Origin: Patescibacteria group bacterium
GTDB taxonomy: Bacteria; Patescibacteriota; Minisyncoccia; Moranbacterales; JAKLHP01
Direction of reading: 5' to 3'
Length of the DNA stretch: 64,000 nt
NCBI GenBank assembly: GCA_043803385.1
Contig: JAZDKA010000041.1
Location: 19,799-83,798 of the forward strand
Shown here: positions 5,288 to 64,000 of the stretch, piece by piece
Layout: each line of letters begins with the position of its first letter
Position numbering within the stretch: position 1 is the first letter of the stretch
The notes under the pieces: model-generated
Told to the model about the DNA's origin: nothing
Database searches by the model: none
The model's input: the letters and a program-made list of their open reading frames with translations, nothing else
Translations under genes and position numbers: made by a program

Positions 5288-5561
5288 TTTTACCTCCTCG
5301 AAATATTATATAATGAGTTTAACCTGAATAATTAATTGCTGTCAAGAAAGCTACAAAACTAAAAATAATTATTTTGATAACTTATAGAAATGAAAAAGAT
5401 TCAGACGCTTTGCATTGTTCATTTTGAATGCCATTATTTTTAAAAAATAAAAAGTTTAAAGGAAAATTTATTTTTGAAGGGATGAATAAAATTATTGATT
5501 ATAGTTTAAAAGAAATATAAAAAATACTTAATACAAAATACTTTATACTAGATACTAGTCT

Positions 5562-6126: not shown

Positions 6127-7209
6127 ATGTTTAAAAAATTTGAAAATTTTTCTAAAATGATAGGAGGATTATTCGGTAAAGTTTCCCAGGATATCGGAAT
6201 CGATCTTGGAACAGCCAACACTTTGGTATACGTTAAAGGAAAAGGGATTATGATCAATGAACCTTCTGTTGTAGCCGTTAACAAAAAAACCGGACAAATT
6301 TTAGCTATCGGGAAAGATGCCAAAAGAATGGTTGGAAAAACCCCGAGTCATATTGTGGCAACCAGGCCATTAGTTGACGGGGTAGTGAGCGACTTTGAAA
6401 TTACTGAACAAATGCTCCGCCATTTTATTAATAAAGTCGGAAAGCAATCCTTTTCTCTTATTCCTCGCCCAAGAGTGCTCATTGGAATTCCTTCAGGAAT
6501 AACAGAAGTCGAAAAGAAAGCAGTTGTTGATGCCGCAACCAATGCGGGAGCAAGAGAAGCTTTTCTTATTGATGAACCGATGGCGGCGGCAATTGGAGCG
6601 CGCCTTCCAGTAACGGAAGCAGCGGGGAATATGGTGGTAGATATCGGCGGAGGAACTTCAGAAATCGCGGTAATATCTCTGGGCGGAGTGGTAGTTTCAA
6701 GAAGTTTGCGTGTAGCCGGAGATGAAATGAATGAAGATATCGTGAGATATTGCCGGGACGAATTCAATCTGCTGATTGGAGAGAAAACAGCTGAGGATGT
6801 AAAAATAGCCATCGGAAGCGCTTATCCGATGAAAGAAAGCATGACTCTTCCTGTTCGAGGAAGAGATCTTATCAGCGGGCTTCCAAAAGAAGTTATCGCC
6901 AATGACGAGCAAATCAGGCAGGCATTATCAAGGTCAATCAGGATCATTGTTAATAATATCAAATCGGTAGTAGAAGATACTCCGCCGGAACTTTTGGCCG
7001 ATGTGATGCAAAGGGGGATAATATTGGCCGGGGGTGGAAGTTTGATCCGCGGAATGGATAAATTAGTTGCCAACCAAACTGAGATGCCGGTTAGAATGAT
7101 GGAAGATCCTTTGACAGCCGTAGTTCGCGGAACTGGAATAGTGCTTGAAGATCTTGAAAATCTTAAGGACGTCTTGGTTGAAAGCGAATACGGAAAATCC
7201 CTTATTTAA
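6127..7209 (+). CDS. mreB: Rod shape-determining protein MreB
   Basis: Has GIDLGTANT, EPSVVA and DIGGGTSE actin-fold motifs. Length 360 aa. Confidence 0.9.
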   Translation: MFKKFENFSKMIGGLFGKVSQDIGIDLGTANTLVYVKGKGIMINEPSVVAVNKKTGQILAIGKDAKRMVGKTPSHIVATRPLVDGVVSDFEITEQMLRHFINKVGKQSFSLIPRPRVLIGIPSGITEVEKKAVVDAATNAGAREAFLIDEPMAAAIGARLPVTEAAGNMVVDIGGGTSEIAVISLGGVVVSRSLRVAGDEMNEDIVRYCRDEFNLLIGEKTAEDVKIAIGSAYPMKESMTLPVRGRDLISGLPKEVIANDEQIRQALSRSIRIIVNNIKSVVEDTPPELLADVMQRGIILAGGGSLIRGMDKLVANQTEMPVRMMEDPLTAVVRGTGIVLEDLENLKDVLVESEYGKSLI

Positions 7210-7302
7210 CTACGAATTACGAATTTTATACAAATATACGAATGTACTAATATTTTTTAATTCGTATATTGGTATATTTGTACTTGATTAGTAATTCGTA
7301 GT
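7210..7302 (+). repeat. Family A MITE-like palindromic element (ctacgaattac...gtaattcgtag)
   Basis: Terminal inverted repeats ctacgaattac/gtaattcgtag with a nested inner palindrome tacaaatatacgaat/attcgtatatttgta. A near-identical reverse-complement copy is at 31114-31206. Confidence 0.8.
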
Positions 7303-7308
7303 CTATTT

Positions 7309-8121
7309 ATGTCTTTTAACTTTTTTCAAACAAAACTTTTCAAGGTGATTGCCGTATCTTCAATAGCATTTTTTTTCATAATTATAAATCCCTACAAGAT
7401 TTTTAATCCAGTTCGCTCGGTATTTTTAGTGATTTTTTCTCCAATTCAGAAAGTAGCTTATGGGCTGTCTTTTGAAATTAAACAAGTCAAAAATTTTCTT
7501 TCTTCCATAGGCCAGCTAAAAAACGAAAATGAAAAGCTTATAAAAGAAAACAGGGAACTTTTGTCTTTGAAAATAAGCCTTGAAGAAGCAGGAAGGGAAA
7601 ATGAAATTTTGCGCCGGGAACTAAAACTGCTTCCAATGGATAAATTTAATCTTGAAGGAGCTTCACTGGTAGGGAAAGATCCTCATGGAAAAGGCGATTG
7701 GATTGAGATTGACAAAGGGGGAAAGGATGGAATTGGCGAGGAAATGCCGGTTGTTGTCGGTTCAGGAATTTTAATAGGGAAAGTAAGCGAAGTTTTTCCG
7801 ACGACTTCGAAAATCGTCCTGCTTAGCAATCCAGGGAGCGCCATAAATGCCGTAGATTCGAAAACCGGTTCCAAGGGAGTAGTTCGAGGAGAATATGGCC
7901 TGGGAATAATAATGGATATGGTTCTCCAAAGCGAAGCCTTGAATCAAGGCGATGATGTGATTACTTCCGGAATAGGCAAGGAATTTCCCAGAGGACTCCT
8001 GATAGGAAAAGTGTCCGCGGTAAATCCTTCAGAAGATAGGCTTTTTCAAAAAGCGATAATTTCTTCTCCAGTGGATTTTAATAACTTGCAGTTCGTTTTT
8101 GTCGTTAAAAAAGGCATTTGA
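7309..8121 (+). CDS. mreC: Rod shape-determining protein MreC
   Basis: N-terminal TM segment, a coiled-coil region (ENEKLIKENRELLSLK), and a C-terminal beta domain. It sits between mreB and mreD. Confidence 0.75.
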   Translation: MSFNFFQTKLFKVIAVSSIAFFFIIINPYKIFNPVRSVFLVIFSPIQKVAYGLSFEIKQVKNFLSSIGQLKNENEKLIKENRELLSLKISLEEAGRENEILRRELKLLPMDKFNLEGASLVGKDPHGKGDWIEIDKGGKDGIGEEMPVVVGSGILIGKVSEVFPTTSKIVLLSNPGSAINAVDSKTGSKGVVRGEYGLGIIMDMVLQSEALNQGDDVITSGIGKEFPRGLLIGKVSAVNPSEDRLFQKAIISSPVDFNNLQFVFVVKKGI

Positions 8122-12358: not shown

Positions 12359-12406
12359 ACTTTAAATATTTGTATATTTGTAATTAATTTGTAATTCGTA
12401 GAAGTT

Positions 12407-13204
12407 TTATTTTTTCACCGGAAATCCTTTTTCTTTCCATCCTGCGAAACCGCCCTGGAGGGATTGAGAAGCGAGGAAGCCGAGGTCGTAGAGGCGGACT
12501 CCGCCCTGAAATCCCTGGGTTTCCGTGTCTCCATAAACGAATATTTCTTTTCCGTAAGGTATTTTATCCTTGGATTTTTCAAGATCGTCGGCAAATATAT
12601 TTATGGCTCCGGGAATGTGGCCGTTATCAAAAGACTGTTTTCCTCTGATGTCAATTATAAATTTTTGGTAGTTGCTATTTTCAACAATTTCCTTGAGCTT
12701 TTCCGGCTCGATATAAGTGACTTTCGACTGATCGAAGAATGAACTCGGATTTCCGATGGATATCGTGTTTCCATTTGAATTTTTCCAAGCAGGAAATCCG
12801 CCAGTCAAGACAAGAACGCTCTTAGTTTGCTTGTTTTTTAAAAGTTTTATAATTCCTGAATATTCATCGCTTTCGCTGGAATTTCCGATGATAATTATCG
12901 TTTTTTCCGGATTTATTTCATTTGCCGATTCTTCCGAATTGATATTAAGGGAATCAACGATGTGTTCTATTTTAAATTCATCCTGGCTTCTGATGTCTAT
13001 GATTTGGATGTTTTCAGAATTCTTTATTTTGCTCTTTAAATCATCAGCTGATACTTGGGCATAGCTGATAACTTCCTTCGAGGCATTACTTTTTCCGGAA
13101 TCTTGCTTTTTAAATCCTGACCTGAAAAAGGTAAAAACAAAAACGAGGGCAATTAAGAGAAGGCCTATCAGCATCACTTTATTATTTTTTTTCTCGTCGT
13201 TCAT
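12407..13204 (-). CDS. Membrane-anchored tandem rhodanese-like domain protein (active-site Cys apparently absent)
   Basis: N-terminal TM segment and two rhodanese-like modules (IIDIRSQDEF..., IIDIRGKQSFDNGHIPGAINI). The loop positions carry S/D instead of Cys. Confidence 0.6.
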   Translation of the reverse strand: MNDEKKNNKVMLIGLLLIALVFVFTFFRSGFKKQDSGKSNASKEVISYAQVSADDLKSKIKNSENIQIIDIRSQDEFKIEHIVDSLNINSEESANEINPEKTIIIIGNSSESDEYSGIIKLLKNKQTKSVLVLTGGFPAWKNSNGNTISIGNPSSFFDQSKVTYIEPEKLKEIVENSNYQKFIIDIRGKQSFDNGHIPGAINIFADDLEKSKDKIPYGKEIFVYGDTETQGFQGGVRLYDLGFLASQSLQGGFAGWKEKGFPVKK

Positions 13205-25613: not shown

Positions 25614-25784
25614 TCCCAGCACCAATTCCGAGATAGTCTTTAATAAATTTGATAGTTTATTCTTGGAATCGCCTCGCCTGAGGCAGGCTTGGCTTTAGCT
25701 GGTTATGGTATGAAATTCACATTGCGAATTAGTGCGGGATGCTCAATTTTATAGCTACTCGCTCTGCTCGCAGACAAAATTGGC
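25614..25784 (-). repeat. Family B MITE-like element copy B1, abutting the start codon of the PD-(D/E)XK nuclease gene
   Basis: TIRs atcccagcaccaattcc / gaattagtgcgggatgc and the conserved core aggcgattcc. It ends ...cgcagacaaaattggc-ATG. Confidence 0.75.
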
Positions 25785-26900
25785 ATGCGAATCTCTTATT
25801 CCGCTCTGGAAACTTACAAAACCTGTCCTCTGAAGTACAAATTTCAGGAAATTGACAGGATAAAGACTCCCAAATCCAAGGAGGCAGTTTTTGGTACGAT
25901 TTTGCATTCCACGCTTAATTTTATCCATACTCCGAGCATGCTTTCCCCCACTTTGGAGCAGGCGCTGGATTATTTTTCCCGCAATTGGAATAGTGATGTT
26001 TTTGAGAATGAATTAGAAGAAAGATCAGCATTTTCCCAAGGAGTTTCAATGATTCAGGATTATTACAAAAAAAATGATCCGACAAAAACAAATGTAGTTG
26101 ATTTAGAAAGCAGATTTACAATAGAACTAGGCGACCATATCGTTTCCGGAATTATTGACCGGATCGATAAGACCGAAGATGGCTATGAAATCGTTGACTA
26201 TAAGACGACCAAAAAAATGCCTTCTCAAAATAAGGTTGATAATGATTTGCAATTATCCATTTATCTCCAGGCGTTTCTTAAAAGATATCCTAAGGAAATC
26301 GAAAACATTGATAAAATAAAAGTAAGTTTGTATTATCTCAAGCATGGAGTGAAGCTTACTTCCACTAGAACAGTTGATCAGCTCAAAAAAATCGATGATT
26401 TATTTTTGGATGTTATCAAGCAGATCGAAGAAGGAAAATTTGACGCGCAAATTAATCCCCTTTGCGACTGGTGCGGATACCAGAATGCCTGTCCGATGTG
26501 GAAACACAAGTTCAAGGAAAAGAGAAAAATTGACACGGAAGAGGTGAATAAAATTATTGCCGAGTACATTGCCAGTAAATCCCAAATCACAACTCTCAAA
26601 TCACAACTCTTGAATCTGGAAGATAAAATCTCGGAATATATGGATCAAGAAAGCGTGGAAAGAGTTTTTGGAGAAAACGGAATTATTGCCAGGACATTGC
26701 GAAAAACTTATAAATACGATGAAAAAAAGATTAGGGAAATACTCGAACCACTCGACAAATGGGAAGATGTTTTGAAAGTCGACGGAATCGCGCTCAAAAA
26801 TATATTAGCCGTCTTGCCTTTTAACGCCAAAAAAGAAATTGAAAAAGCGAAAGTGGTGGATAAGGAAAGCAAGAGCTTTAGCGTGAAAAAATCAAGTTAA
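25785..26900 (+). CDS. PD-(D/E)XK nuclease superfamily protein (Cas4/AddB-like, C-terminal 3-4 Cys cluster)
   Basis: N-terminal SYSALETYKTCPLKYKF, ...IDRID...YEIVDYKT (D..E.K motif), and C-terminal CDWCGYQNACPMW. Confidence 0.7.
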   Translation: MRISYSALETYKTCPLKYKFQEIDRIKTPKSKEAVFGTILHSTLNFIHTPSMLSPTLEQALDYFSRNWNSDVFENELEERSAFSQGVSMIQDYYKKNDPTKTNVVDLESRFTIELGDHIVSGIIDRIDKTEDGYEIVDYKTTKKMPSQNKVDNDLQLSIYLQAFLKRYPKEIENIDKIKVSLYYLKHGVKLTSTRTVDQLKKIDDLFLDVIKQIEEGKFDAQINPLCDWCGYQNACPMWKHKFKEKRKIDTEEVNKIIAEYIASKSQITTLKSQLLNLEDKISEYMDQESVERVFGENGIIARTLRKTYKYDEKKIREILEPLDKWEDVLKVDGIALKNILAVLPFNAKKEIEKAKVVDKESKSFSVKKSS

Positions 26901-29790: not shown

Positions 29791-30488
29791 TATTTAATGA
29801 TCGTTCCTTTAAACTTCTTCCCATCCATATAATTTCCCAGATTCATTAAATCTCGGCCGTTCATAATTGCCACCTCGATATTTTCTTCCTGGGCGATTTT
29901 GGAAGCAATTGGGTCGAAGGGCGCGTTCATCCCGGGATCCCACTTATCCCCCACTATTTTTCGGAAATCTTTCCAGGAAATTTTTTCTATTTTCTTAGCA
30001 TCGGGAAATTTTCGGGGATCCTTAGTGTAAACGTAATCAATATTGGATAGATTAACCACTCGCTTGATATCCATATATTTTGCCAGAATTACCGCGTCGT
30101 AATCAGAAGAAAAGCCCGGTCTCCAGCCAGCTCCAATTAAAATAGATTCTTTGAAGTTATAGAAATCTTCCAGATCGTGAGGATTGGTATTTATTCTTGG
30201 ATGGGCATAATTTCTGAAAATTGTTCTTAGAAAATGTCCATTCATTCTGGTCGCGTGAATTCCCAACCAATCTTTGTCATCATTGGTGACAGAGCTATCG
30301 CCTACCTTGACTGAAGCCTCGATATATTTTCTGGCTGTTTTTCCTCCTCCGGTAATTAAGATAAATTTATAACCTTTTTTGATGTAGCCAACAATTAATT
30401 TCTTGAAGTTTTTTACAAATTGAGCATCGATTTCATCGGGAACGATGAGCGATCCTCCAAGAGAGATTACGATGGTTTTTTTTGCCAT
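29790..30488 (-). CDS. pyrH: UMP kinase (amino-acid kinase family)
   Basis: Start taken at MAKKTIVISLGGSL. Has ITGGGKTARKYI and ILIGAGWRPGFSSDYDA...YTKDPRKFPDAKK. Confidence 0.75.
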   Translation of the reverse strand: MAKKTIVISLGGSLIVPDEIDAQFVKNFKKLIVGYIKKGYKFILITGGGKTARKYIEASVKVGDSSVTNDDKDWLGIHATRMNGHFLRTIFRNYAHPRINTNPHDLEDFYNFKESILIGAGWRPGFSSDYDAVILAKYMDIKRVVNLSNIDYVYTKDPRKFPDAKKIEKISWKDFRKIVGDKWDPGMNAPFDPIASKIAQEENIEVAIMNGRDLMNLGNYMDGKKFKGTIIK

Positions 30489-30655
30489 TTTTGTCTGCGA
30501 GGTACGAGCAGCTACAAAAATGAGCATCCCGCACCAATTCTATTAGTTAACTTTTTATTATTTAAAATTAAGCCGCACTTGCCTAAAGTAAGGCGATTCC
30601 GTGAATAAAACTATAAATTTACTCAAGGATATATTCGGAATTGGTGCGGGAAGGC
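30489..30655 (-). repeat. Family B MITE-like element copy B2, filling the whole HIT-pyrH spacer
   Basis: TIRs gagcatcccgcaccaattc / gaattggtgcgggaag and the core aggcgattccgtgaataaaa. It ends ...cgcagacaaaa-ATG. Confidence 0.8.
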
Positions 30656-31105
30656 TTACTTGTTTAATTTAATTATTCTAGCGATTTTTTGGAGTTCTTT
30701 TATATCGGCTTGCTGACCTAATTGAGTTGTCAAATAGCCTTGATATTTTTTCAAAAATACTTTTTCTTTTGCCCAAACTGCTTTAAATTCCGGTCCGACG
30801 CCATGAAGTGGATATAATTTTATATGCGCGTGATTAACTCCCATTCCTTCCATTACTATTGCTACCCTGTTCACTTTTAATCCTTTCTTGAGGAGCTTAG
30901 CCACTTTCTTGGCGGCCAGAAAAAAATCTTTGTAAATTTTGTCATCCATCTCAATCGCATCAGAATCGTAATGCTTTTTCAGCATCACCAGCGCCATTCC
31001 CTTGGTATTGGGAAACGCATCTAAAATGGCGAGAAAATTTTTGTCTTCCCAGATTTTTACTGATGGAATTTCTCCTTTGATAATTTTACAAAAAATACAA
31101 GACAT
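30656..31105 (-). CDS. HIT family (histidine triad) protein
   Basis: CIFCKII...; the histidine motif is GVNHAHIKLYP. Confidence 0.85.
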   Translation of the reverse strand: MSCIFCKIIKGEIPSVKIWEDKNFLAILDAFPNTKGMALVMLKKHYDSDAIEMDDKIYKDFFLAAKKVAKLLKKGLKVNRVAIVMEGMGVNHAHIKLYPLHGVGPEFKAVWAKEKVFLKKYQGYLTTQLGQQADIKELQKIARIIKLNK

Positions 31106-31113
31106 AAATACTG

Positions 31114-31206
31114 ACTACGAATTACTAATCAAGTACAAATATACCAATATACGAATTAAAAAATATTAGTACATTCGTATATTTGTATTAAATTCGTAGT
31201 TCGTAG
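31114..31206 (-). repeat. Family A MITE-like palindromic element, reverse-complement copy
   Basis: >90% identical to the reverse complement of 7210-7302. Confidence 0.8.
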
Positions 31207-31212
31207 AGAAAA

Positions 31213-31656
31213 TCATTTAAAACAACTCGCCGCTCTCTGGTATCCTTTCTTTTGCGCTTCTGCTTCGCTTCCGAAGCAAACCTTATTTTCCGGCTTTATG
31301 CGCTTGGCATATGAACAGCTGGGAGGATAATATTTGTCGGAATTTTTACTACCTACGAAAGAGCAGCTTGTTGAGGTTTTCGGGGCTTCCTCCCCTATCT
31401 TAGTAGAAACCTCGCCTAACGTCAAATTTTGCGTTTTTTGGCTGTCTTGGGGGCTACTTGGAGTATTTGCATATTGGGCTGGTTTTTCAATAATTAGGGC
31501 TGGTTTTTGCCATTTTTCACCTTTCAGGATCCCAAATTGAAAGGAAATGGCAGCTACCAAAATTAGACCGAAAAGCAGCACTATTTTTTGCTCATATTTA
31601 AGCCAAACTTGCTTGATTTTCAGAAAATGCTTATTCTTGGGTTTTTCAGTTGACAT
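31213..31656 (-). CDS. Membrane-anchored protein with C-terminal Cys-rich putative metal-binding domain
   Basis: N-terminal TM segment and C-terminal CSFVGSKNSDKYYPPSCSYAKRIKPENKVCFGSEAEAQKKGYQRAASC. Confidence 0.45.
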   Translation of the reverse strand: MSTEKPKNKHFLKIKQVWLKYEQKIVLLFGLILVAAISFQFGILKGEKWQKPALIIEKPAQYANTPSSPQDSQKTQNLTLGEVSTKIGEEAPKTSTSCSFVGSKNSDKYYPPSCSYAKRIKPENKVCFGSEAEAQKKGYQRAASCFK

Positions 31657-35941: not shown

Positions 35942-36739
35942 TTATAATAATTTCTTCTTGGCTATATTTTTTAATTCCTCATTGAATTCAGCGATTGCTT
36001 TTTCAATGAGCGGATCGAATTTTTTGTAAATTTCTTTTTTCTTGACAATATTCCCCGCTTCAAGAAGCGAATCGAATGTTCCGGCATCCAGCCATTCGCC
36101 TTTCACAATGCCTACTTCCAGCTCGCCTTTTTCCAAATAATAATTATGGAGAGAGGTAATTTCTATTTCTCCCCTATCGGAAGGCTTTACTTCTTTAGCT
36201 ACTTTCAAAACCTGATTGTCATAAATATAAAGTCCGGGAATGGCATAATCACTTATCCATTCTTTTGGTTTTTCTACTATTTTAATGGCTTTATTATTTT
36301 CATCGAATTTCACAACGCCGGATCTTTCCGGATCATTCACCTTTTTGGCGAATATTTTTCCTCCAGACTTAAAATTCTTAATATCCTCGGAAAAATCATC
36401 TTCAAAAATATTATCTCCCAGGATCATTGTTACGTTGTCATTGTCAATAAAATTTTCTCCGACAATAAAAGCGTCAGCCAAACCTCTCGGAGTTTTTTGC
36501 ACTTCAAAAAACAAATCGATGCCGTAATTTTTAAAAATTGATCCCAGAAGATTAAGGAATTGCCCGCTGTGTTCCGGCGCGACAATGACTAAAATTTCTT
36601 TAATCCCGGCTTTAATTAAGGTATTCAACGGATAGAAAATCATCTGCCGATCATAAACCGGTAAAAGCTGCTTGGATGTCGTAGCGGTGAGAGGGAGTAA
36701 ACGCGTGGCTGTCCCTCCGGCGAGAATAATGCCTTTCAT
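35942..36739 (-). CDS. rmlA: Glucose-1-phosphate thymidylyltransferase-like nucleotidyltransferase
   Basis: MKGIILAGGTATRLLPLT..SKQLLPVYD..MIFYPL. Confidence 0.75.
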   Translation of the reverse strand: MKGIILAGGTATRLLPLTATTSKQLLPVYDRQMIFYPLNTLIKAGIKEILVIVAPEHSGQFLNLLGSIFKNYGIDLFFEVQKTPRGLADAFIVGENFIDNDNVTMILGDNIFEDDFSEDIKNFKSGGKIFAKKVNDPERSGVVKFDENNKAIKIVEKPKEWISDYAIPGLYIYDNQVLKVAKEVKPSDRGEIEITSLHNYYLEKGELEVGIVKGEWLDAGTFDSLLEAGNIVKKKEIYKKFDPLIEKAIAEFNEELKNIAKKKLL

Positions 36740-36912
36740 GCAATTTTTATCTGCGAGCGTAGCGAGCAGCTATAAAAATTAGCATCCCGCACCAATTCGC
36801 AGTTTATATTTTAATTTTTTTGAAATTTGAGCCGCAGCCTGCCTCAGGCGAGGCGATTCCGTGAATAAAATTATAAATTACCCGTAGCTTTATTCGGAAT
36901 TGGTGCTGGACA
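36740..36912 (-). repeat. Family B MITE-like element copy B3 (its right TIR supplies the last codons and stop of rmlD)
   Basis: ttagcatcccgcaccaattc ... gcctgcctcaggcgaggcgattccgtgaataaaa ... cggaattggtgctgg. Confidence 0.8.
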
Positions 36913-37825
36913 AGTATTCCTTTAATGCTTCTTTCCAGCTTCGAAGTGGGTTTAGTTTGGTATTTATCAAAACTGAAATTTCCGGTCTTTTGGCTGGCCT
37001 TTTGAGGTCTTTCGAAGCTATCGGAATAACTTTAGTTTTGACTTTCTTTAACTTATATAATTCTAACGCGGCTTGGTGCCATGTGCAAGCGCCGGAATTG
37101 GTAACGTGATAAATTCCAAAAGGTTTTTTGGCTTCAACTATTTCTTTAGTTTTTCGCGCCAAATCCGGCGCGTAAGTATAGCAGCTTATTTCATCGTTAA
37201 CTATTTTTACAGATTTATTTTTTCCCCCTAATTCTAGCATTACATCAAAAAAACTTTTTTTTGCTCCTTCGGCTTTGGCAGGTTTTCCGAATAATTTTGA
37301 AGTTCGGATAATATAATACTTCTTAGTGTTCTTTTGAACTTCTATTTCTCCCAAAAGTTTTGTTTTTCCGTATTTATTTATTGGTTTCGGCTTGTCGCTT
37401 TCCTTAAATCCTATTTCCGGCTGAAAATTAGCGTGAAGCATGCAGGAATGACAAGAATGAGCGCATCCCTCCGGCTCTTCTATTTTTGGCTTTCCGTCAA
37501 AAACATAATCAGTTGAATAATGAATGAACATTGCTCCGATTTTTTTGGCGATTTTAGCGAGATATCCTAGAGCCAATCCGTTTATTTTTTTGGCAATTTC
37601 AAACTCTTTTTTTTCTTCGCATTTATCCACAGCATTGTAAGCGGCGGAATTGATAATAATTTTAGGATTTATCACTTTAATTTTTTTGTGAACGGCCACT
37701 TCATTGGCAATATCCAAATCATCTTTGTCCCAAGCGATAACTTTGTAATCCTTATCAGACTTAAAGACAGAAACCAATTCCTGTCCCAGCATTCCTTTCG
37801 CGCCGATTATTAGTATCTTTGCCAT
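36890..37825 (-). CDS. rmlD: dTDP-4-dehydrorhamnose reductase
   Basis: Start taken at MAKILIIGAKGMLGQEL (Rossmann fold). Has YGKTKLLGE (YxxxK). The ORF-track N-terminal extension MVRDAH... is read-through into repeat B4. Confidence 0.75.
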   Translation of the reverse strand: MAKILIIGAKGMLGQELVSVFKSDKDYKVIAWDKDDLDIANEVAVHKKIKVINPKIIINSAAYNAVDKCEEKKEFEIAKKINGLALGYLAKIAKKIGAMFIHYSTDYVFDGKPKIEEPEGCAHSCHSCMLHANFQPEIGFKESDKPKPINKYGKTKLLGEIEVQKNTKKYYIIRTSKLFGKPAKAEGAKKSFFDVMLELGGKNKSVKIVNDEISCYTYAPDLARKTKEIVEAKKPFGIYHVTNSGACTWHQAALELYKLKKVKTKVIPIASKDLKRPAKRPEISVLINTKLNPLRSWKEALKEYLSSTNSE

Positions 37826-37984
37826 TTTTATCTTCGAGTGAAACGAGAAGCTATAAAAATGAGCATCCCGCACCAATTCTTTAAATTAAACTTTTTTATT
37901 ATTTGAGATTAAGCTGCAGGCGATTCCGCGGATATAGATTTTTAATATTGCATATATCTATATTCGGAATTTGGTGCGGGATTT
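37826..37984 (-). repeat. Family B MITE-like element copy B4
   Basis: gagcatcccgcaccaattc ... aggcgattccgcggata ... cggaatttggtgcggga. Confidence 0.8.
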
Positions 37985-46492: not shown

Positions 46493-46575
46493 GTTCTGTC
46501 AACCCCGCACTAACTTTTTGCTGGCGTAGCCGATTTAGCGCTTTGCGCTTGCAAAAAGTTAGTGCGGGGCAAGTC
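46493..46575. repeat. Family E long-stem hairpin repeat (tgtcaaCCCCGCACTAACTTT...AAAGTTAGTGCGGGGcaag), copy 1; likely bidirectional terminator
   Basis: A 19-bp stem, T-rich on both sides. It is 3' of the sortase gene. Copy 2 is at 55381-55466. Confidence 0.75.
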
Positions 46576-51765: not shown

Positions 51766-52810
51766 TTAAAATAATACTGATGCATCTCCCTGGGAGTTGT
51801 TTATTATTTCCTTTTCGAAATTTTTCATTGGTTCATCTTTGAAATCAACGGTTTCTTCTTCTTTGTTCCAGGAATAATCTTTGGAAAATACCATGATTTT
51901 CATTTTTTTCATTTCTTCGTAAAGAAATTCTCCGAAAGTTTTTTTGGGCAGAAAAATCTGCCTTATTCTTATAAGTTCGGAATCATTTTCTGTTTTTTTG
52001 TCTTCCACTTCAATAATATGGAATCCAAGGGAGCTTTCAATAATGTCGCTTATTTTCCCCTTGTCTGAAGCAAAGACTGCCTTCGATACTTCTTCAATGA
52101 GCTGGTCTTTTTTGAACCACCCAAGCTCTCCCCCATCTTGGGCAGTTGATCCTTTTGAATATTCCATGGCGACATCGGCAAAAACTTTCTTCTTATTGAG
52201 TTCGGCTTTTGCTTTTTCTATTTGTTCTTTTCCTTTCTTGACCGAACTATCTCTGGATGCAAATATTTTTTCAAGCTCCTGGCGGTATAGATCCGGTTTC
52301 ACGACTTTTTCCTTAAAATCATCAATTGACCAGCCGTATAGTTTTTCCAGGTTATTATTCAAATTATCTCCCGTTCCGTATTCTTCCATTTTTCTGCTTA
52401 AATTTTGGCTGACCATCGCATCCGTTATCTTCATACCTTCTTTTCGGGCTAAAATTTCAATCGCTTTGTCTTCGATCATTCTTTCGAGTACTTCTTTCTC
52501 TTTCATCTTCAGCCTTTTTTTTCCATTTTCAGTGGAAAAATCCACCCGCAAATCAACTTTCGAAAAATCCTGGTTTTCATAAAATTTCTTCACTGATTCA
52601 AGATTGTTATTGAGATTTTTAAATGTGATAAAATTATAATTATTCAAAACCGCAACCGGATATGGGATTATTTTTTCCATTTTTTTAACAGCCTTATAAT
52701 CTTTTCCAAATCCGTAAATAAGAATGCCAAAAACAACGATAATAGCTACAGCTACTATCAAACTAGAGTAAACAATAGTTGATATTTTTACTTCATTATC
52801 TTTTGCCATA
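51766..52810 (-). CDS. PpiC-type (parvulin) peptidyl-prolyl cis-trans isomerase, SurA/PrsA-like
   Basis: Start taken at MAKDNEV. N-terminal TM segment. The parvulin domain carries GGELGWFKKDQL...GFHIIEV. Confidence 0.75.
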
Positions 52811-52952
52811 ATTGTCTTTGAGCGTAGCGAGAAGCTACAATTATGAGCATCCCGCATCAATTTTTTAACTGATATTTATATTTATCCAGGTAAGCCGTAG
52901 GCGATTCCGTGGATAAAACTAGCTTTTGTTTTAAATTTTATTCGAAATTGAT
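52811..52952 (-). repeat. Family B MITE-like element copy B5
   Basis: gagcatcccgcatcaattt ... aggcgattccgtggataaaa ... gaaattgattgcggga. The TIRs show co-varying substitutions. Confidence 0.75.
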
Positions 52953-52971
52953 TGCGGGATTATACATATTT

Positions 52972-53361
52972 TTAATATCTAAAGAAATAATCCCACCATC
53001 TCACATAATTGGGCCGGCTGTCAGTTTCCGCGACAACATTTTTTGTTTCCTGGCTTTCGGCATTTCCTCCCCTCAAGACCGGGCTGGGTTTTATTACTGC
53101 CACATTTTCATTTTCTTTCTGGAGATTGAGTTTTTCTTTGGCAATCCGTTCTTGGAATTCCGGAGTTTCAAAATAGGTTATTTTTTCCTTCATATCGCCG
53201 TTGTTCTGGCGAAGCTTATCTGCTTCCTGGCGCAGAGAACTTATCTCATTTTCAATTTGCTTGTTTCTTCGGTTTTCTTTAAAAGCAAAATAGGAAATCC
53301 ATCCGGCAATAATAATTCCGAAAATTATGAAAATTATTGAAAAAAATGATCTTTTCCCCAT
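52972..53361 (-). CDS. ftsB: Septum formation initiator family protein (FtsB/DivIC-like)
   Basis: N-terminal TM segment and a coiled coil (EISSLRQEADKLRQNNGDMKEKI). Length 129 aa. Confidence 0.6.
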   Translation of the reverse strand: MGKRSFFSIIFIIFGIIIAGWISYFAFKENRRNKQIENEISSLRQEADKLRQNNGDMKEKITYFETPEFQERIAKEKLNLQKENENVAVIKPSPVLRGGNAESQETKNVVAETDSRPNYVRWWDYFFRY

Positions 53362-53363
53362 TT

Positions 53364-53477
53364 TTATTGGGTTCTGATTAGAGGAGCCAATTCAAAAGCA
53401 ATCATAGAAATTACTCCCAAAAGAGTAATTACTATCCAAATAACGCGCAACTTCTTTTTTCTTCGATTATTATGCAT
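53364..53477 (-). CDS. Possible 37-aa small membrane protein MHNNRRKKKLRVIWIVITLLGVISMIAFELAPLIRTQ
   Basis: An ATG-initiated ORF whose stop lies 2 nt before the ftsB start. Basic N-terminus plus one TM segment (FtsL-like layout). Confidence 0.3.
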   Translation of the reverse strand: MHNNRRKKKLRVIWIVITLLGVISMIAFELAPLIRTQ

Positions 53478-53687
53478 GATAATAAAATCAAAAATCAAAA
53501 TTATTTAATTTTATCCTTATTATATCCTATTTTTTTAGACCTGACAAATGCAATAAAAAAAACCGCCATTGGGCCATGAATTAAAGAAAAATGGCAATAA
53601 TATCAATGAGAGAGCAAAGATACTTCTTGCCAATTATATTTTCTTTAAATTCACAGCCCGCTAGCGGCTTAGATTTGCGATTTACCC

Positions 53688-53765
53688 CATTTAAATCCAC
53701 AAACAATTTCTGAATTTGAATCGGAAGGGAAATAAAATTGGTGTTGCAACTACTTCCCTGAAAAA
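53688..53765. repeat. Family F element copy 1 (cccatttaaatccacaaacaatttctgaatttgaatcggaagggaa...gttgcaac...ttccc)
   Basis: ~85% identical over ~50 nt to 54305-54392. It lies 3' of the gene 53886-54248. Confidence 0.65.
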
Positions 53766-53885
53766 GAACTTGGGTTCGGATTTGTAGTCATCATATCCGC
53801 AACTTCGCATATTCACTTTAGGACAATATGCTATCCCATGTATCTAGTTTAGGATGATACGTTATCCTTTATCATAAATATAAAT

Positions 53886-54248
53886 CTATAAAATTTTTTC
53901 GATTGTTTCATCAAGGAAATGATCCCAATCCGGCGCATGTCCGTTTGATTTTGCAGATTGCAAAACCTCAATCGATTTGTCTTTTTCAAGCCTCGTGGCT
54001 TTATCCATTGCGAACTCATCGTTAGTTCTGAATGGAATCTGCCAGATCGTAAAATCTTCTTTCATCCAGTACTCGCCAGCTACTCTCCCATATCTGCCAG
54101 TATACTGGTAAAGAGAAACGAATTTCTCTTTAGTGTGATACGTAGTTGTTCTTTTTGACCAGACATAATCTTTAGGTTGTCCACCTTCGATTATGCCTCC
54201 TTCAAAAATTGTAGACCTACTCCAAGGCATTTCTTTAAAAAATTTCAT
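53886..54248 (-). CDS. Hypothetical protein, foreign-looking (strong SD), cassette-like
   Basis: A 120-aa ORF preceded by AAAGGAGGATGT-ATG and followed by the family F element. Confidence 0.5.
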   Translation of the reverse strand: MKFFKEMPWSRSTIFEGGIIEGGQPKDYVWSKRTTTYHTKEKFVSLYQYTGRYGRVAGEYWMKEDFTIWQIPFRTNDEFAMDKATRLEKDKSIEVLQSAKSNGHAPDWDHFLDETIEKIL

Positions 54249-54304
54249 ACATCCTCCTTTGCGTTTTAAGCCCGCATGGCTTTAAGTTTTTTGAAACGAA
54301 CTAT

Positions 54305-54392
54305 GGGATTTTTCCCATTCAAACCCACAAAATAATTTATGAATTTGAATGGAGAGGGAATACTTGCGATGTTGCGTTGCAAGCATTCCCCG
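54305..54392. repeat. Family F element copy 2, contains hairpin gggaatacttgc/gcaagcattccc
   Basis: It lies 3' of the gene 54399-54941. Confidence 0.65.
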
Positions 54393-54398
54393 AAATTT

Positions 54399-54941
54399 CT
54401 ACTCCTCATGGATAAATTTCAGTAGCTTAATAACTGCTGGAATATCCTTGGGATGCTTGCGCAGGTTGTCTTCAACTCTCCTGCGGGCCTTCGCCAGTTC
54501 TTCTTCTGTCGGAAGAGCCTTGGCAAGTTCCCAATCTCTGACCAGCTCTAACTCAGCTTCTTCAAGTTTTTTCAGAAGCTCATTCCGAAGAGCCATGACA
54601 ACCTCCTTGGCCGTTGCTGGCCTAGAAAAAGAGTCTTTTTCTATTTCGCAATCCGAATCGCACTCCTCAGTATGCTCATGAGGCATCAACCAGCATACTT
54701 CAATGTCAAACCAACCCCCCGTGTGCTTATTTTTTCCCTCAAAGTAATAGCTCTGTATACTTACCCTGAGGATCTCCCCTTCTCTTAGGGGGAAATGATC
54801 AACTTTCATAAGGCTTTCATGGGTGAGTCCTAGAGATGCCAGTCTCTGGGCAAACTCATTTCTTGCTTCAACTTGACCCGCAAGCGAAGCGTCAAGAAGC
54901 GCCTTAATTTCCGCTAAATCTTTTTCTAATAAATCTTTCAT
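54399..54941 (-). CDS. Hypothetical protein, foreign-looking (strong SD, GC ~48%), cassette-like
   Basis: A 180-aa ORF preceded by AAAGGAGAAAAG-ATG. Acidic Cys/His patch HEHTEECDSDCE. Confidence 0.5.
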   Translation of the reverse strand: MKDLLEKDLAEIKALLDASLAGQVEARNEFAQRLASLGLTHESLMKVDHFPLREGEILRVSIQSYYFEGKNKHTGGWFDIEVCWLMPHEHTEECDSDCEIEKDSFSRPATAKEVVMALRNELLKKLEEAELELVRDWELAKALPTEEELAKARRRVEDNLRKHPKDIPAVIKLLKFIHEE

Positions 54942-55380
54942 CTTTTCTCCTTTGCTTCCAGGACTGAGCCCTAGAGCCTTGGATCACTTATATCTGTTTC
55001 TCTGCCATTACTGGTTCAGAGTGCCTAAAGCGAGGGATCTCGGTTTTCGCCGCCCGATTTCGATTTCAAATCGGGAAATATTTATTTTTTAAAACGAAAT
55101 TTCTCTTCTTTGCGAAGAGAGTGATGAAAAAGAATTTTTTTGATGGAAGTTTTGAAGGTTATATAATTGTTTAAAGCCTTAAACTATCCACCCCTCCTTT
55201 TCATCACTTTTTCCACAAAAATAAAAGCGACTAAGAAATTTTTCCGAAAAATTATTCGAGGAAGATTTCTCAATCGCTTTGGTAAATTTTTGAGTCTCTC
55301 TCCTCAATAATTTTTTTGAATTTTGATGAACTGTCATCTGATTTCAGCGTAACGGTCAAGCATATCATACAAAAAAGAAC

Positions 55381-55466
55381 CTGTCAACCCCGCACTAACT
55401 TTATACTGATTATTACAGGCTTTTAGCACCAAAGGTGCTGGTATAAAGTTAGTGCGGGGTCAAGCA
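55381..55466. repeat. Family E long-stem hairpin repeat copy 2 (3' of lepA)
   Basis: ctgtcaaccccgcactaacttt...aaagttagtgcggggtcaag, with a nested inner hairpin agcacc-aaa-ggtgct. Confidence 0.75.
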
Positions 55467-55504
55467 CAGATTCCTATTTTAGGCTTAGATAAAGGATAAT
55501 ATTT

Positions 55505-57304
55505 CTATTTCTTGAGAACCGCCAAGAAGGCTTCGGAAGGGATTTCTACTTTTCCGATGTTTCGCATTTTTTTCTTGCCTTTTTTCTGTTTTTCCAGCAG
55601 TTTTTTCTTGCGGGAAACGTCCCCGCCGTATAATTTTGCAATAACATCTTTACGGAAAGCTTTGATAGTTTCCCTGGCAATCACTTTAGCTCCGATTGCC
55701 GCTTGAAGCGCTACGGAAAAATTTTGCCGGGGAATAGATTCTTTTAATTTTTCAACAGTAGCCTTTCCTTCGCTGAAAGCTTTTTCTTTGGGAACGATCC
55801 GGGAAAAAGCTTCCACTTTTTCTCCAGCGACCAAAATATCAAGCCTTATTAAATCATAAGGCCGGTATCCGATCAGTTCATAACTCATCGAGGCAAAACC
55901 GGAAGTGGCGCTTTTAAGATTGTCATGGAAATTTATAATAACGTCGGCTAGCGGAGCTTCAAAGGCCAGAAGTACTCGTTCTTCGTCAAGGTATTCCGTA
56001 TTTTTATAAATTGAGCGGATAGTTCCCACGAGTTCCATTATTTGCCCGAGATAAGCCGATGGAGTGATAATATCCAGTTTTACGAATGGTTCAGAAATTT
56101 CTTCAATTACGGAAGGATCGGGCATGTCGGATGCCGAGTAAATATTTTCTATCTTGCCGGTATTTTGTATCTTTACTTCATAAACAACGCTCGGAGTAGT
56201 GATGGTCGGAAAAATATTGAATTCTCTTTTTAATCTTTCATGGATAATTTCCAGATGAAGCAATCCCAAAAATCCGCAGCGGAATCCTCTTCCCAGCGCT
56301 TTATTGCTTTCCGGCTCAAAAACAAAAGCGGCGTCATTAAGTTTAAGCTTATCCAAAGCGTCCCGCATAAAATTATAATTATCTCCTTCAATCGGATAGA
56401 AGCTGGCATAAACCATAGGTTTCACTTCTTTGTATCCGGGAAGGCTTGAGACTTGCCCTTTGAATTTCGTCAAAGTTATGGTATCTCCCACTCTTGAGTG
56501 CTCTACACTTTTGAATCCGGTGGCAATATATCCGATATCGCCAGCCTTTAAAATTTCAGAAGTTTCAAATTGCGGCTTGAAATATCCGACTTCAATTACC
56601 GTGCTTTCGTTTTTATTTTCAGTCATAAATATCTCGTTGTCTCTTTTGACTTTTCCGTCGACAATTCGAACATAAGCCACAACGCCTTTATAGGAATCAT
56701 ATTTGGAATCAAAAATAAGCGCCCGGAGCGGTTTTTCTTCATCGCCTGCCGGAGCTGGTATTTTTTCTATTATAGCTTCCAGTATTTTTTCCACGCCTTC
56801 ACCGGTTTTTCCGGAAGCCAGAAGGATTTCCTCTTCCTTGCATCCCAGAATATGAATTATTTCTTTTTTAGTTTTGGAAACATCGGCATTGGCAAGATCA
56901 ATCTTATTCACCACCGGAATTATTTCCAGCCCTTGCTCGATGGCAAGATATAAATTAGATAAAGTTTGCGCTTGGACGCCTTTGGTGGCGTCAACCAGAA
57001 GAATTGCGCCTTCAACCGCTGCCAGCGACCGCGAAACTTCATAATTAAAATCAACATGGCCGGGAGTGTCAATTAGATTCAGAATGTACTCCGCGTTAGT
57101 CCGCGATCGGTAGATGATTCTGACCGGCTGCAATTTAATGGTGATTCCTCTTTCTCTCTCTAAGTCCATCTGATCCAAAATCTGGTCTTTCATTTTCCTC
57201 TTTTCAATAGTATTGGTAAATTCCAAAAGCCGGTCGGCCAAAGTCGACTTCCCGTGATCAATATGGGCGATTATTACGAAATTTCGAACATTATTTTGAG
57301 CCAT
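55505..57304 (-). CDS. lepA: Elongation factor 4 (LepA)
   Basis: G-domain motifs AHIDHGKST, DTPGHVDF and NKID, plus the LepA C-terminal domain. Length 599 aa. Confidence 0.95.
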   Translation of the reverse strand: MAQNNVRNFVIIAHIDHGKSTLADRLLEFTNTIEKRKMKDQILDQMDLERERGITIKLQPVRIIYRSRTNAEYILNLIDTPGHVDFNYEVSRSLAAVEGAILLVDATKGVQAQTLSNLYLAIEQGLEIIPVVNKIDLANADVSKTKKEIIHILGCKEEEILLASGKTGEGVEKILEAIIEKIPAPAGDEEKPLRALIFDSKYDSYKGVVAYVRIVDGKVKRDNEIFMTENKNESTVIEVGYFKPQFETSEILKAGDIGYIATGFKSVEHSRVGDTITLTKFKGQVSSLPGYKEVKPMVYASFYPIEGDNYNFMRDALDKLKLNDAAFVFEPESNKALGRGFRCGFLGLLHLEIIHERLKREFNIFPTITTPSVVYEVKIQNTGKIENIYSASDMPDPSVIEEISEPFVKLDIITPSAYLGQIMELVGTIRSIYKNTEYLDEERVLLAFEAPLADVIINFHDNLKSATSGFASMSYELIGYRPYDLIRLDILVAGEKVEAFSRIVPKEKAFSEGKATVEKLKESIPRQNFSVALQAAIGAKVIARETIKAFRKDVIAKLYGGDVSRKKKLLEKQKKGKKKMRNIGKVEIPSEAFLAVLKK

Positions 57305-62294: not shown

Positions 62295-62338
62295 CTCTAC
62301 GAATTACGAATCTGTACAAATATACGAATGTACGAATT
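62295..62338. repeat. Partial family A repeat (tctacgaattacgaatctgtacaaatatacgaatgtacgaatt)
   Basis: Matches the left half of 7210-7302. Confidence 0.6.
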
Positions 62339-64000
62339 TTAGTTGTTTATTATCACATTACTTTTCGTAAAAACCAATCCAATAAATCTGTCTACATCTA
62401 ACTTTGTCTCTAGTCTCAAACTGCTATCTCCTTTCTCAATATTATTTTCCGGATAATTCCAGATATCTTTATAATTTTTTGGAAATTTTATGTCCGAGAT
62501 AAAATTGCTTCCAATACTTCCTGACTGTTTTTGAACAAGCAAAGAATAAGAATCAGCTTCAGTTTTTTCGCTGTTCAAATTTATTTTGAAAGGAAGGAGA
62601 TATTTATACCTTAAAACCATTGTTTCTTTAGGACTCACATAGGTCCAGTTGGCAAAAACTGTTTTTCCCGAATCTTCATAAATTCTTGTTCCTGAATTTT
62701 CATCAATTAGCACATTTCCTTCTTCTTTTTGCACCAGGGGATCTTTTTTGAATCCCAGGCTATCATAATCAAGCGGAGGATTGACTGTCTCTCTGGTTTG
62801 CCCTTCTGCTTCAAGGAGTTTTGCGCCAAGCGGCACATAAACTCTCATATAATCAGCGTTCACCTTATTCCACCATTCATAATCAGTGTCGCCTCCATTA
62901 TGATGCCGTGTAATCGTTACTGTGTCAATGATTGTTCCGTCGTTTTGAATCTCCGCTATGTGTTCTATTTTTTCATCTATCACCCCGTCAGTTTTAAAAC
63001 CGTTAATGTTAGTATTTATTACGCTCAAATAATCTTTTTGCGTGTCTAAAATTTCTCCCGACCATCCTTTTTCTGAAATTATTTTTTGGAGATCTTCGTT
63101 TTGGGAATAAAAAAGGACGTGCTTTTGTGCTAGCCCTTCAGAAAAAGCCTCAAAAATGCCTGCTATGCTTTTTGCATCGCGGGCGTTGAAAATTCTGTCC
63201 AAAATAATTGGAGCAAGGTCTGATAATATTTTTTTCGGCTTATTCTCTTCTTTGTCATAATCAACTTCTACTTCGTACTGCGTTTTTTCAATGAAATTTT
63301 CGGAATCGATGGTAACATCATAATCTTTCATTTCGATTGGTCCGGTTATTTTTAGAAGTTCCTGCATTATTGTCGGAGTGAGGGTTATTACTCCGTCTGC
63401 TGTTGGTCCGCCTGTTTTTTCGTAAAAATCCATTGCCTTTTTAGCTGAAGTTGGGAAGTCGGGAAACCAGTTGCTGTCATGAAGGCTCCAAGCCGCGCTG
63501 ATTTTTTGGATTGGTTTTGGAGGAACTATTTTTTCCTGGAGCTGCCCATCGGGATTAAAAATTCCGTCAATGAAAAAATTACGGATTCTTCCTTCCGAAA
63601 TATCCATAATCCCGTAGCTTCCGATAAATCCTCCGGTAGCTCTCATTTCCTGATTGTTCTGAAAGAGAAAAAGATATTTTCTCGGCCCGTTTCCTCCCAG
63701 AAGATCGGAAAATATTTCGCTATTGCCCAGAAAATTTTTGACAAACTGCCTGATCGAGGGCAGTTTTTCTTTTATAGCTGAAAATTGTTCGCGCTTGTCT
63801 TCAGGAAGGTCGTCAACATTTATTTTATCGATATTTTCTTGGATCTGGTCTAATTCCGCACTCACTATTTTAATGTCTTTTTCCGAGGACTTGAAAATTT
63901 CAAGGAAAGAAATATTATTGTTGCCTTTTTCGCCGAGCGGATTTTGAAGATAACTCACTTTTTTTATTATTTCATTCAGCGATTGTCCAGCAATAGCAAT
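62339..64000 (-). CDS. DUF4012 domain protein (5' end outside the window)
   Basis: YLFLFQNNQEMRATGGFIGSYG signature. The reading frame stays open upstream of the GTG chosen by the ORF track, all the way to the window edge. Confidence 0.6.
   Translation of the reverse strand: MAIAGQSLNEIIKKVSYLQNPLGEKGNNNISFLEIFKSSEKDIKIVSAELDQIQENIDKINVDDLPEDKREQFSAIKEKLPSIRQFVKNFLGNSEIFSDLLGGNGPRKYLFLFQNNQEMRATGGFIGSYGIMDISEGRIRNFFIDGIFNPDGQLQEKIVPPKPIQKISAAWSLHDSNWFPDFPTSAKKAMDFYEKTGGPTADGVITLTPTIMQELLKITGPIEMKDYDVTIDSENFIEKTQYEVEVDYDKEENKPKKILSDLAPIILDRIFNARDAKSIAGIFEAFSEGLAQKHVLFYSQNEDLQKIISEKGWSGEILDTQKDYLSVINTNINGFKTDGVIDEKIEHIAEIQNDGTIIDTVTITRHHNGGDTDYEWWNKVNADYMRVYVPLGAKLLEAEGQTRETVNPPLDYDSLGFKKDPLVQKEEGNVLIDENSGTRIYEDSGKTVFANWTYVSPKETMVLRYKYLLPFKINLNSEKTEADSYSLLVQKQSGSIGSNFISDIKFPKNYKDIWNYPENNIEKGDSSLRLETKLDVDRFIGLVFTKSNVIINN

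Follow-up and report, generated by a model that had tools for sequence, protein, structure and literature searches.

Layout of the islet

Between lepA and the next operon, a 64-kb stretch from a metagenome-assembled genome (MAG) of the Patescibacteria, referred to here as the window, carries an islet of ~2 kb that consists of two small open reading frames (ORFs), gene 2 and gene 1, and two copies, F2 and F1, of a structured element of ~100 nt that we call F. All coordinates are positions in the window unless a contig is named. Read along the minus strand, the order is the lepA stop codon (55505), hairpin T, a promoter-like site, a leader of ~400 nt, gene 2, F2, gene 1, a 120-nt spacer, F1, a run of eight T and the next promoter-like site (Table 1). 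Both ORFs and both copies of F lie on the minus strand, which is thus the sense strand for all of them.

The site TTGACA-17-TATGCT, with TG before the second hexamer and 10 of 12 positions matching, is the only plausible promoter for gene 2, F2, gene 1 and F1. A promoter scan found no sigma-70-like site on the minus strand from 55310 to 53547, and the next promoter-like site past the unit is TTGTCA-17-TATAAT at 53519-53547. Because no promoter-like site precedes gene 1, the islet is probably a single transcription unit with F2 and F1 inside the transcript, and gene 1 would be co-transcribed through F2. The region with the T8 run is taken as the terminator of the unit from inspection by eye, the terminator scan having left it unflagged. 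No direct repeats flanking the whole islet were found, and the window contains no tRNA or tmRNA.

An initial annotation of the locus had proposed an integron-cassette-like array of two foreign-type ORFs, each followed by a conserved element. The two elements are where it placed them, both ORFs are co-oriented with an element 3' of each, and their Shine-Dalgarno (SD) sites are strong (AAAGGAGGATGTATG and AAAGGAGAAAAGATG), as it had stated. The element follows the gene directly in the case of F2, and after the 120-nt spacer in the case of F1. The foreign character assigned to the genes holds in part. The GC fraction is raised in gene 2 (0.453 vs an ORF mean of 0.381, standard deviation 0.040; 3 of 45 ORFs are above it) and average in gene 1 (0.383). 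Gene 1 is without homologues, its only match among 5.8 billion proteins being itself, and gene 2 has a very small family, with 9 proteins recovered by profile search and ~20 representatives in 1.84 billion. Pfam and PADLOC searches gave nothing above threshold for 11 array proteins, gene 1 and gene 2 included. The AlphaFold 2 (AF2) model of gene 2, with a mean predicted local distance difference test (pLDDT) score of 70, consists of helices, a four-stranded sheet and further helices, and at that confidence had no fold match in the PDB.

Anatomy and folding of element F

F1 and F2 are 76% identical in alignment. A covariance model of the F core recovers only F2 (86 bits, E = 8e-23) and F1 (64 bits, E = 3e-16) in the whole window; the next-best match on the sense strand scores 17 bits and the antisense strand scores much lower. 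An exact-pattern search for the F consensus has an expectation of 0.00 chance matches. In the sense direction, F is made up of hairpin A (~13 bp, with GCAAC in the loop), hairpin B (17-19 bp), a mini-hairpin (GGGA-NAAA-UYCC) and an AGTTnTTT box, the last present in F2 and absent from F1. Hairpin A is followed by UCUCCAUUC without a U-tract. The stem of hairpin B (CCAUUCAAAUUC...GGGUUUGAAUGG) lies 0-2 nt downstream of hairpin A, and a duplex of 17-19 bp, about two helical turns, is present in all copies of F. In F2, the mini-hairpin together with AGUUCGUUUC passes a simple terminator scan; its stem has just 6 bp and competes with hairpin B. Several details of the initial annotation change with this anatomy. 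The element, which had been delimited as ~80 bp (53688-53765 and 54305-54392), is longer, comprising hairpin A, hairpin B and a tail; GCAAC, assigned there to hairpin pairing, is the loop of hairpin A and not its stem; and the consensus string (cccattNaaaNccacaaaNNaatttNtgaatttgaat) reads correctly on the plus strand apart from a 1-nt indel.

Folded as RNA, the sense strand is more stable than the antisense strand in both copies: -41.1 vs -32.8 kcal/mol for F2 (z = -7.2 vs -4.9) and -22.1 vs -14.6 kcal/mol for F1. Across copies, 97.5% of the cells of hairpin B are paired, with 18 G.U cells on the sense strand vs 2 wobble cells on the antisense strand. Hairpin A folds in six of six independent copies, with 13-17 pairs and z from -2.2 to -7.1. 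It diverges faster than hairpin B (mean identity 63% vs 79%), and the two are always 0-2 nt apart. Per-copy folds are reported for hairpin A in place of pair counts because the MAFFT alignment is out of register between copies there.

A small peptide encoded across F was considered and rejected as unlikely: the ORFs that span F shift frame between copies through indels, and F is therefore taken to be non-coding. Rfam gave no match in the whole window at gathering thresholds, and at E values up to 10 only chance-level matches in 53300-55600.

Table 1 Features of the islet, in order along the minus strand, with the parts of each F copy listed below it.
Feature	Position	Strand	Description
Hairpin T	55387..55460	-	Perfect 20-bp stem (ACCCCGCACTAACTTTATAC ... 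GTATAAAGTTAGTGCGGGGT) closely following the lepA stop codon; bounds the islet upstream
Promoter-like site	55359..55387	-	TTGACA-17-TATGCT
First AGTT box	55311..55334	-	ACAGTTCATCAAAATTCAAAAAAA; same sequence type as the boxes after F copies and at leader starts of other gene-2-type units
Gene 2 5' leader	54942..55310	-	Structured; long hairpin, hairpin C, 6-bp hairpin before the SD
Gene 2	54399..54941	-	180 aa; V1804_03955
F2	54293..54391	-	Hairpin A, hairpin B, mini-hairpin, AGTT box
F2 hairpin A	54355-54391	-	13 bp, loop AACGCAACATC
F2 hairpin B	54314-54353	-	18 bp, three U.G pairs
F2 mini-hairpin	54303-54318	-	ATGGGA-AAAA-TCCCAT
F2 AGTT box	54293-54302	-	AGTTCGTTTC
Gene 1 leader	54262..54292	-	Short; A-run, small hairpin AAGCCATGCGGGCTT (54268-54282), SD AAAGGAGG
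Gene 1	53886..54248	-	120 aa; V1804_03950; without its own promoter
Spacer X	53760..53885	-	~120 nt, between gene 1 and F1; ends in AAATCCGAACCCAAGTTCTTTTT
F1	53669..53759	-	Hairpin A, hairpin B, tail GGGGTAAATCGCAAATCT without AGTT box
F1 hairpin A	53726-53759	-	GCAAC within the loop
F1 hairpin B	53685-53725	-	One C.A mismatch, one unpaired base
Unit end	53553..53668	-	Small hairpin AGCCGCTAGCGGGCT (53655-53669), weak hairpins, run of eight T (53555-53562)

F in other genomes and contigs

Genuine copies of F outside the window were found on four metagenome contigs only (L003, L009, L010 and L011), always in the sense orientation and between unrelated small ORFan genes. Of the 8 loci retrieved from metagenome contigs by a pattern scan, 3 are real (L009, L010, L011) and 5 due to chance. 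Among 185,579 species-representative genomes, the strict F pattern had no matches, and the 64 matches to a loose pattern were all due to chance, scoring at most 22 bits with the model; in viral contigs, the pattern gave only chance matches inside coding sequence. From these scans of metagenomes, representative genomes and viral contigs, the F family is therefore rare and narrow. The literature searched contained no description of such an element or of integron-like arrays in Patescibacteria.

Contig L010 (Ga0172379) repeats the layout of the islet most fully, with gene A (120 aa), F, gene B (224 aa), F and gene C on one strand; none of the three genes has a family match. The hairpin A of the first F in this contig (456-485) shares its 8-bp stem (AAGGCGAG/CTCGCCT) with the intrinsic terminator of the gene 2 homologue in contig L084 (1988-2015), and the stem is followed by a T-run in L084 and by the F core in L010. 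As judged from this sequence match, the F core may sit between a terminator stem and its former U-tract.

The homologues of gene 2 allow units with and without F to be compared. In L003, the homologue is followed by a clear copy of F, and L002 carries a divergent version recognised by eye. Five further homologues (L001, L082, L083, L084 and L085) are without F. L001 has another small gene, with a terminator-like hairpin behind it, and in the other four the homologue forms a stand-alone unit of promoter, leader, gene and hairpin plus U-tract terminator. The terminator of these stand-alone units occupies the position that hairpin A holds in F-bearing units, and an AGTTnTTT box lies just 3' of the promoter in most stand-alone or promoter-driven units (the window, L002, L003, L083 and L085).

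Two of the stand-alone units have further features. In L083, a 42-nt direct repeat (CAGCTATATAAAAATACGCTTATTTAA(G/C)CGTATTTTTTTGA) at 2354-2395 and 3325-3366 brackets the gene 2 unit of ~970 nt. The repeat is the 3' flank of tRNA-His (2281-2353), with its first copy directly adjoining the tRNA gene, and the pair resembles the trace of an insertion. Genes with Fic, HEPN and SLFN/AlbA domains form an island downstream. In L082, a contig without F, a 197-aa IS200-like Y1 transposase (PF01797, 30.7 bits) is encoded at 4900-5493, 4.5 kb from the gene 2 homologue.

Gene exchange between conserved junctions

Contigs L009 and L011 come from one metagenome (Ga0233425) and represent the same locus in two strains. 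Their first 154 nt, F included, are 99% identical. The next segment is unrelated, with 1525 nt and two genes in L009 vs 448 nt and one zinc-ribbon gene in L011. It is followed by a 181-nt junction element, E2, which is again 99% identical, after which the contigs carry unrelated genes once more (two in L009 vs one of 550 aa in L011) before they rejoin in a common terminator hairpin and the final part of a tsaE-like gene that runs convergently. F, E2 and the terminal hairpin are together kept at 92-99% identity.

At both left junctions, identity ends a few bases (6-8 nt) after AGTT, following CAACAGTTCTTT and AAAGTTCTTTGA, and the sequences match again from the foot of a hairpin onwards. E2 is built like F, with a stem CTCCACAATCCTGC...GCAGAATTGTGGAG followed by AAATTCACAAAAGTT, and its interior contains the hairpin sequence found 3' of lepA in the window. 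From the exchange between L009 and L011, the AGTT boxes at leader starts and the bracketed unit of L083, it follows that the gene units of this lineage behave as discrete exchangeable modules whose junctions are marked by F. The cassette-like layout is real, and it recurs elsewhere.

Comparison with attC sites and other intercistronic elements

By definition, an attC site is a single imperfect hairpin of the bottom strand in which the R and L boxes (RYYYAAC/GTTRRRY) pair, the spacer stays unpaired, some bases are extrahelical and the terminal structure varies (PMC5027507). The integron-cassette-like reading of the initial annotation holds for the layout and for the replacement of genes between strains, but F itself falls outside this definition in several respects: (i) A regular-expression search found neither RYYYAAC nor GTTRRRY on either strand of 53600-54460, and no pair of them 40-160 nt apart anywhere in the window; what F does contain is a bare AAC in the loop of hairpin A and a bare GTT in the AGTT box. 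(ii) Instead of a single bulged hairpin with paired ends, all copies form separate adjacent hairpins, namely A, B and the mini-hairpin, and pairing of the outer ends is not conserved. (iii) The G.U counts and the RNA energies favour the sense strand rather than the bottom strand, and DNA energies are near-equal for the two. (iv) No complete integron (IntI, attI, Pc) was recognised in the window. In agreement with the earlier remark that no integrase is visible, no tyrosine recombinase was recognised among the window ORFs of at least 170 aa, and none by Pfam in the ORFs without assigned function. The attC trait that F does share is its position after ORFs in one orientation, in arrays with varying genes (the window, L010 and L009/L011). 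Because core motifs are absent, the hairpins are separate, the wobble pairs lie on the sense strand and no recombinase was recognised in the window, F does not qualify as an attC site, but it does resemble one in layout.

That resemblance extends to several properties of homogeneous chromosomal attC arrays of the VCR type and of clusters of attC sites without an integrase (CALINs). In both cases, a structured element of ~100 nt follows each small, mostly ORFan gene, the genes are co-oriented behind one promoter, their content varies between strains and the breakpoints lie beside a conserved GTT; as in CALINs, no integrase is nearby. Unlike attC sites, F lacks RYYYAAC/GTTRRRY, forms two or three separate hairpins and favours the sense strand, its junctions may be identical between strains that differ in the genes on either side, and its arrays have only two or three genes.

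The closest known RNA-level counterparts of F are the Correia (NEMIS) elements of Neisseria and the ERIC elements of enterobacteria. These are palindromic intergenic repeats of ~100-150 nt that are co-transcribed, form RNA stem-loops and are reported to act through RNase III or mRNA stability (PMC2229807). Unlike F, they occur as tens to hundreds of dispersed copies with terminal inverted repeats and target duplications; F is present in two copies per 64 kb, in ORFan arrays only, in a fixed orientation and without terminal repeats.

In the early mRNA of phage T7, intercistronic hairpins of a polycistronic transcript are processed by RNase III, and the upstream product ends in a protective stem. 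The conserved hairpins of F similarly lie between the cistrons of what is probably one transcript. Hairpin B differs from the T7 sites in being a near-perfect duplex without the typical internal loop, its cleavage is a proposal, and the host is a bacterium and not a phage. Phage morons and the minimal mobile elements of Neisseria are self-contained units of promoter, gene and terminator between conserved neighbours, and their contents are exchanged by recombination in the flanks. Here, unlike in those systems, it is not core genes that provide the conserved flanks but short structured modules between the genes of the array. Finally, the put antitermination RNA of phage HK022 consists of two adjacent stem-loops in the nascent transcript, upstream of terminators. 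F is alike in its adjacent stem-loops and has no sequence or model match to put; the analogy may serve as a lead on how read-through could be promoted.

A possible transcribed junction module

Our favoured reading, which we put forward tentatively, is that F is the junction module of a small ORFan-gene array in a narrow lineage of Patescibacteria, a transcribed set of stem-loops that would act on the mRNA and whose conservation would also allow gene units to be exchanged. Hairpin A would cap the 3' end of the upstream cistron, at the site where stand-alone units have their terminator, and in having no U-tract would permit read-through. Hairpin B, a conserved A/U-rich duplex of 17-19 bp, would be the target of an RNase III-type double-strand RNase or of a specific RNA-binding protein, which would separate the cistrons or stabilise them differentially. 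The mini-hairpin with the U-rich AGUUnUUU box would form a weak attenuator and mark the same 5' leader start as in promoter-driven units. The module would in this way let transcription pass between gene units and act by processing, stability or attenuation. Since the junction modules are near-identical while the genes between them differ, they may also supply the homology or breakpoints for the exchange of units, presumably by homologous recombination.

Several observations argue for action on RNA: both copies of F are sense-oriented in one islet, and they are the only two in 64 kb; a promoter-like site precedes gene 2 but not gene 1; the sense strand is the more stable one as RNA; G.U pairs are biased to the sense strand; F occupies an operon position; hairpin A keeps its fold despite faster divergence, and takes the terminator's position of stand-alone units without having a U-tract; and the tail is terminator-like. 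The recurrence of F in L010, L003 and L009/L011, the retention of junctions around replaced genes, the frame shifts across F and the precedent of the Correia and ERIC elements count in its favour too. The alternatives mentioned in the initial annotation, a small RNA or a terminator repeat, come closer in this respect than its cassette reading, F being inside an operon, almost certainly transcribed, and weakly terminator-like in its tail.

Other observations weigh against the transcribed module. Covariation in hairpin B is statistically weak: of its 17 pairs, 9 are the same in every copy, a double change occurs once, and 71 of 500 shuffles score equally well. Much of the hairpin B signal is explained by sequence conservation, which would suit a protein-bound DNA site too. 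With DNA energy parameters, the two strands of F2 are near-equal (-21.7 vs -19.4), which leaves room for a DNA-level role. The co-transcription and processing of F are inferred, and the independent copies known are six, all on short metagenome contigs. Homologous exchange does not explain how unrelated genes first arrived between identical junctions, and all junctions end between AG and TT after promoters and after F alike, as a site-specific core would.

Alternatively, F and E2 could be the recombination sites of a new, non-integron cassette system in which a putative recombinase cuts between AG and TT of the conserved core and units are inserted, excised and swapped. The AGTT after the array promoter would then hold an attI-like position and the one after every F an attC-like position, and units would be promoterless or self-contained. 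We regard this as the main rival, less probable than the transcribed module. Much of the layout would suit it: the ORFan genes of the window and of L010 all have one orientation and are each followed by F, two neighbouring slots are filled by genes unrelated between the two strains with junctions 99% identical on either side, and identity ends 6-8 nt after the AGTT core, as it does after the cut between G and TT of integrons. The AGTTnTTT box just 3' of promoters in most stand-alone units, the AAC triplet in the hairpin A loop of all copies with GTT in the box, and the bracketing of the L083 unit by direct repeats next to tRNA-His would also fit. The AGTT box that ends spacer X is 1 nt from hairpin A of F1, an arrangement like an ORF-less cassette, and the F-bearing contigs L003, L009 and L011 break at or near F, which fits population heterogeneity there. 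Yet no recombinase was seen in the window or adjoining any copy of F, the canonical attC features are absent and the favoured strand is the sense strand, opposite to that of attC. The complementarity of AAC and GTT extends over only 3-5 bp, without a conserved helix, and the arrays are tiny, with two or three genes. Moreover, E2 is identical in two strains although the genes upstream and downstream of it both differ, and the junction therefore does not travel with the cassette as attC does. The broader proposition, that a Patescibacteria lineage has a form of gene-cassette capture distinct from integrons, with F/E2 and AGTT as the sites at which a putative recombinase swaps ORFan units between housekeeping genes, seems to us slightly less probable still.

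A selfish nature of F, as a small intergenic repeat akin to REP/BIME, Correia, ERIC or MITE elements that inserted at the foot of terminator hairpins and has no dedicated function, is improbable. Like members of those families F is palindromic, ~100 nt long, intergenic and co-transcribed (PMC2229807); hairpin B and the tail lie exactly between a terminator-like hairpin and a T-rich tract, L010 hairpin A and the L084 terminator have a stem in common, and L082 encodes a Y1 (IS200-like) transposase near its gene 2 homologue. But that contig is itself without F, and F is not dispersed, its two copies in 64 kb both lying in one 2-kb islet, with no real copies in the species-representative genomes or viral contigs. 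It has one fixed orientation relative to genes, and neither terminal inverted repeats nor target duplications occur at the ends of F1 or F2. Little more can be said for F as a DNA-level regulatory region, either an operator for a dimeric or tetrameric regulator at the dyad CCATTCAAA-N20-TTTGAATGG or an unusual internal promoter for the downstream gene, to which we give equally low credence. In its favour, F takes the place held by the promoter in stand-alone units, with the terminator hairpin on one side and the AGTT box of the leader start on the other; hardly any change is seen in the outer 9 bp of the dyad; and the 3' half (TTTTGTGGGTTTGAATGG) has, by eye, a loose likeness to the extended -10 region in the promoters of the units (TTTTTGGGTGTATAATGG). 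The promoter scan found no sigma-70-like site in F2 or F1, however; the hexamers TTCAAA/TTGAAT are 20-21 bp apart, and the key -11 A is missing. The G.U bias of the sense strand would be unexpected for a double-stranded operator, and the inner stem and hairpin A keep their pairing while the sequence changes.

Leader of gene 2 and other features of the window

The leader of gene 2 recurs ahead of its homologues and is in places better conserved than the protein itself (window 54942-55110, L001 2725-2888, L003 262-427, L082 9835-10004, L084 1245-1416, L085 1715-1898 and L002 1185-1329). Its long hairpin has 25-nt arms at 55109-55133 and 55195-55219 (AGAGTGATGAAAAG.../...CTTTTTCATCACTCT) and encloses an SD-like AAGGAGGGG; this module is shared by the window and L003 (~165-255) and absent from the shorter leaders of other gene 2 homologues. 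Hairpin C at 55053-55075 (CCGATTTG..AAATCGG) is followed by CGGCGAAAACCGAGATCCCTCG. The 6-bp hairpin at ~54957-54975, just before the SD GAAGCAAAGGAGA, shows several compensatory changes among homologues (for example TAGGGC/GTCCTG, TGAGAC/GTCTCA and CCAGGC/GTCTGG). The leader has no Rfam match, and its motif gave only chance matches in viral contigs, in a topoisomerase-like gene. The leader is a candidate for a new cis-regulatory RNA. A 5' module of the same leader is also found in L010 (560-620), ahead of the unrelated gene B.

The stem sequence of hairpin T (ACCCCGCACTAAC(T)TT...AAAGTTAGTGCGGGGT) is found again at 46503-46569 and inside E2 (L011 625-690, L009 5840-5905), and looks like a conserved terminator-like hairpin family common to several genomes. 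Spacer X contains two adjacent 21-nt direct repeats, AGGATAACGTATCATCCTAAA and GGGATAGCATATTGTCCTAAA, on the minus strand at ~53815-53867, each with a GGATA..TCC dyad. They look like operator sites, with no evident regulator. Spacer X was also considered as a degenerate copy of F and rejected, its likeness to F being no higher than that of shuffled controls.

Two further sets of repeats lie elsewhere in the window. A family of ~76 nt (...GCATCCCGCACCAATTC...), unrelated to F, has five copies on both strands, at 25713-25787, 30479-30554, 36737-36812, 37818-37893 and 52802-52877. Because several of them overlap annotated ORF starts of the form M(V/M)RDAH.., they are probably located in the 5' regions of genes. 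AT-rich repeat families of TACGAAT/TATACAAATA units occur at 7194-7326, 12366-12415, 31090-31220 and 62313-62361, and among them are two inverted 122-nt sequences (7205-7326 and 31090-31211) that lie 24 kb from each other and are 89% complementary.

Significance

In the tiny genomes of Patescibacteria, neither function nor route of acquisition is known for most strain-specific genes. F is a defined and recognisable landmark for the places at which such genes are joined and exchanged, and the covariance model together with the AGTT box provides a handle for finding these arrays, and the variable genes in them, in metagenomes. If F acts on RNA, it would represent a new structured RNA family that organises the expression of accessory genes; if it is instead a recombination site, the principle of the integron would have been invented a second time, independently.

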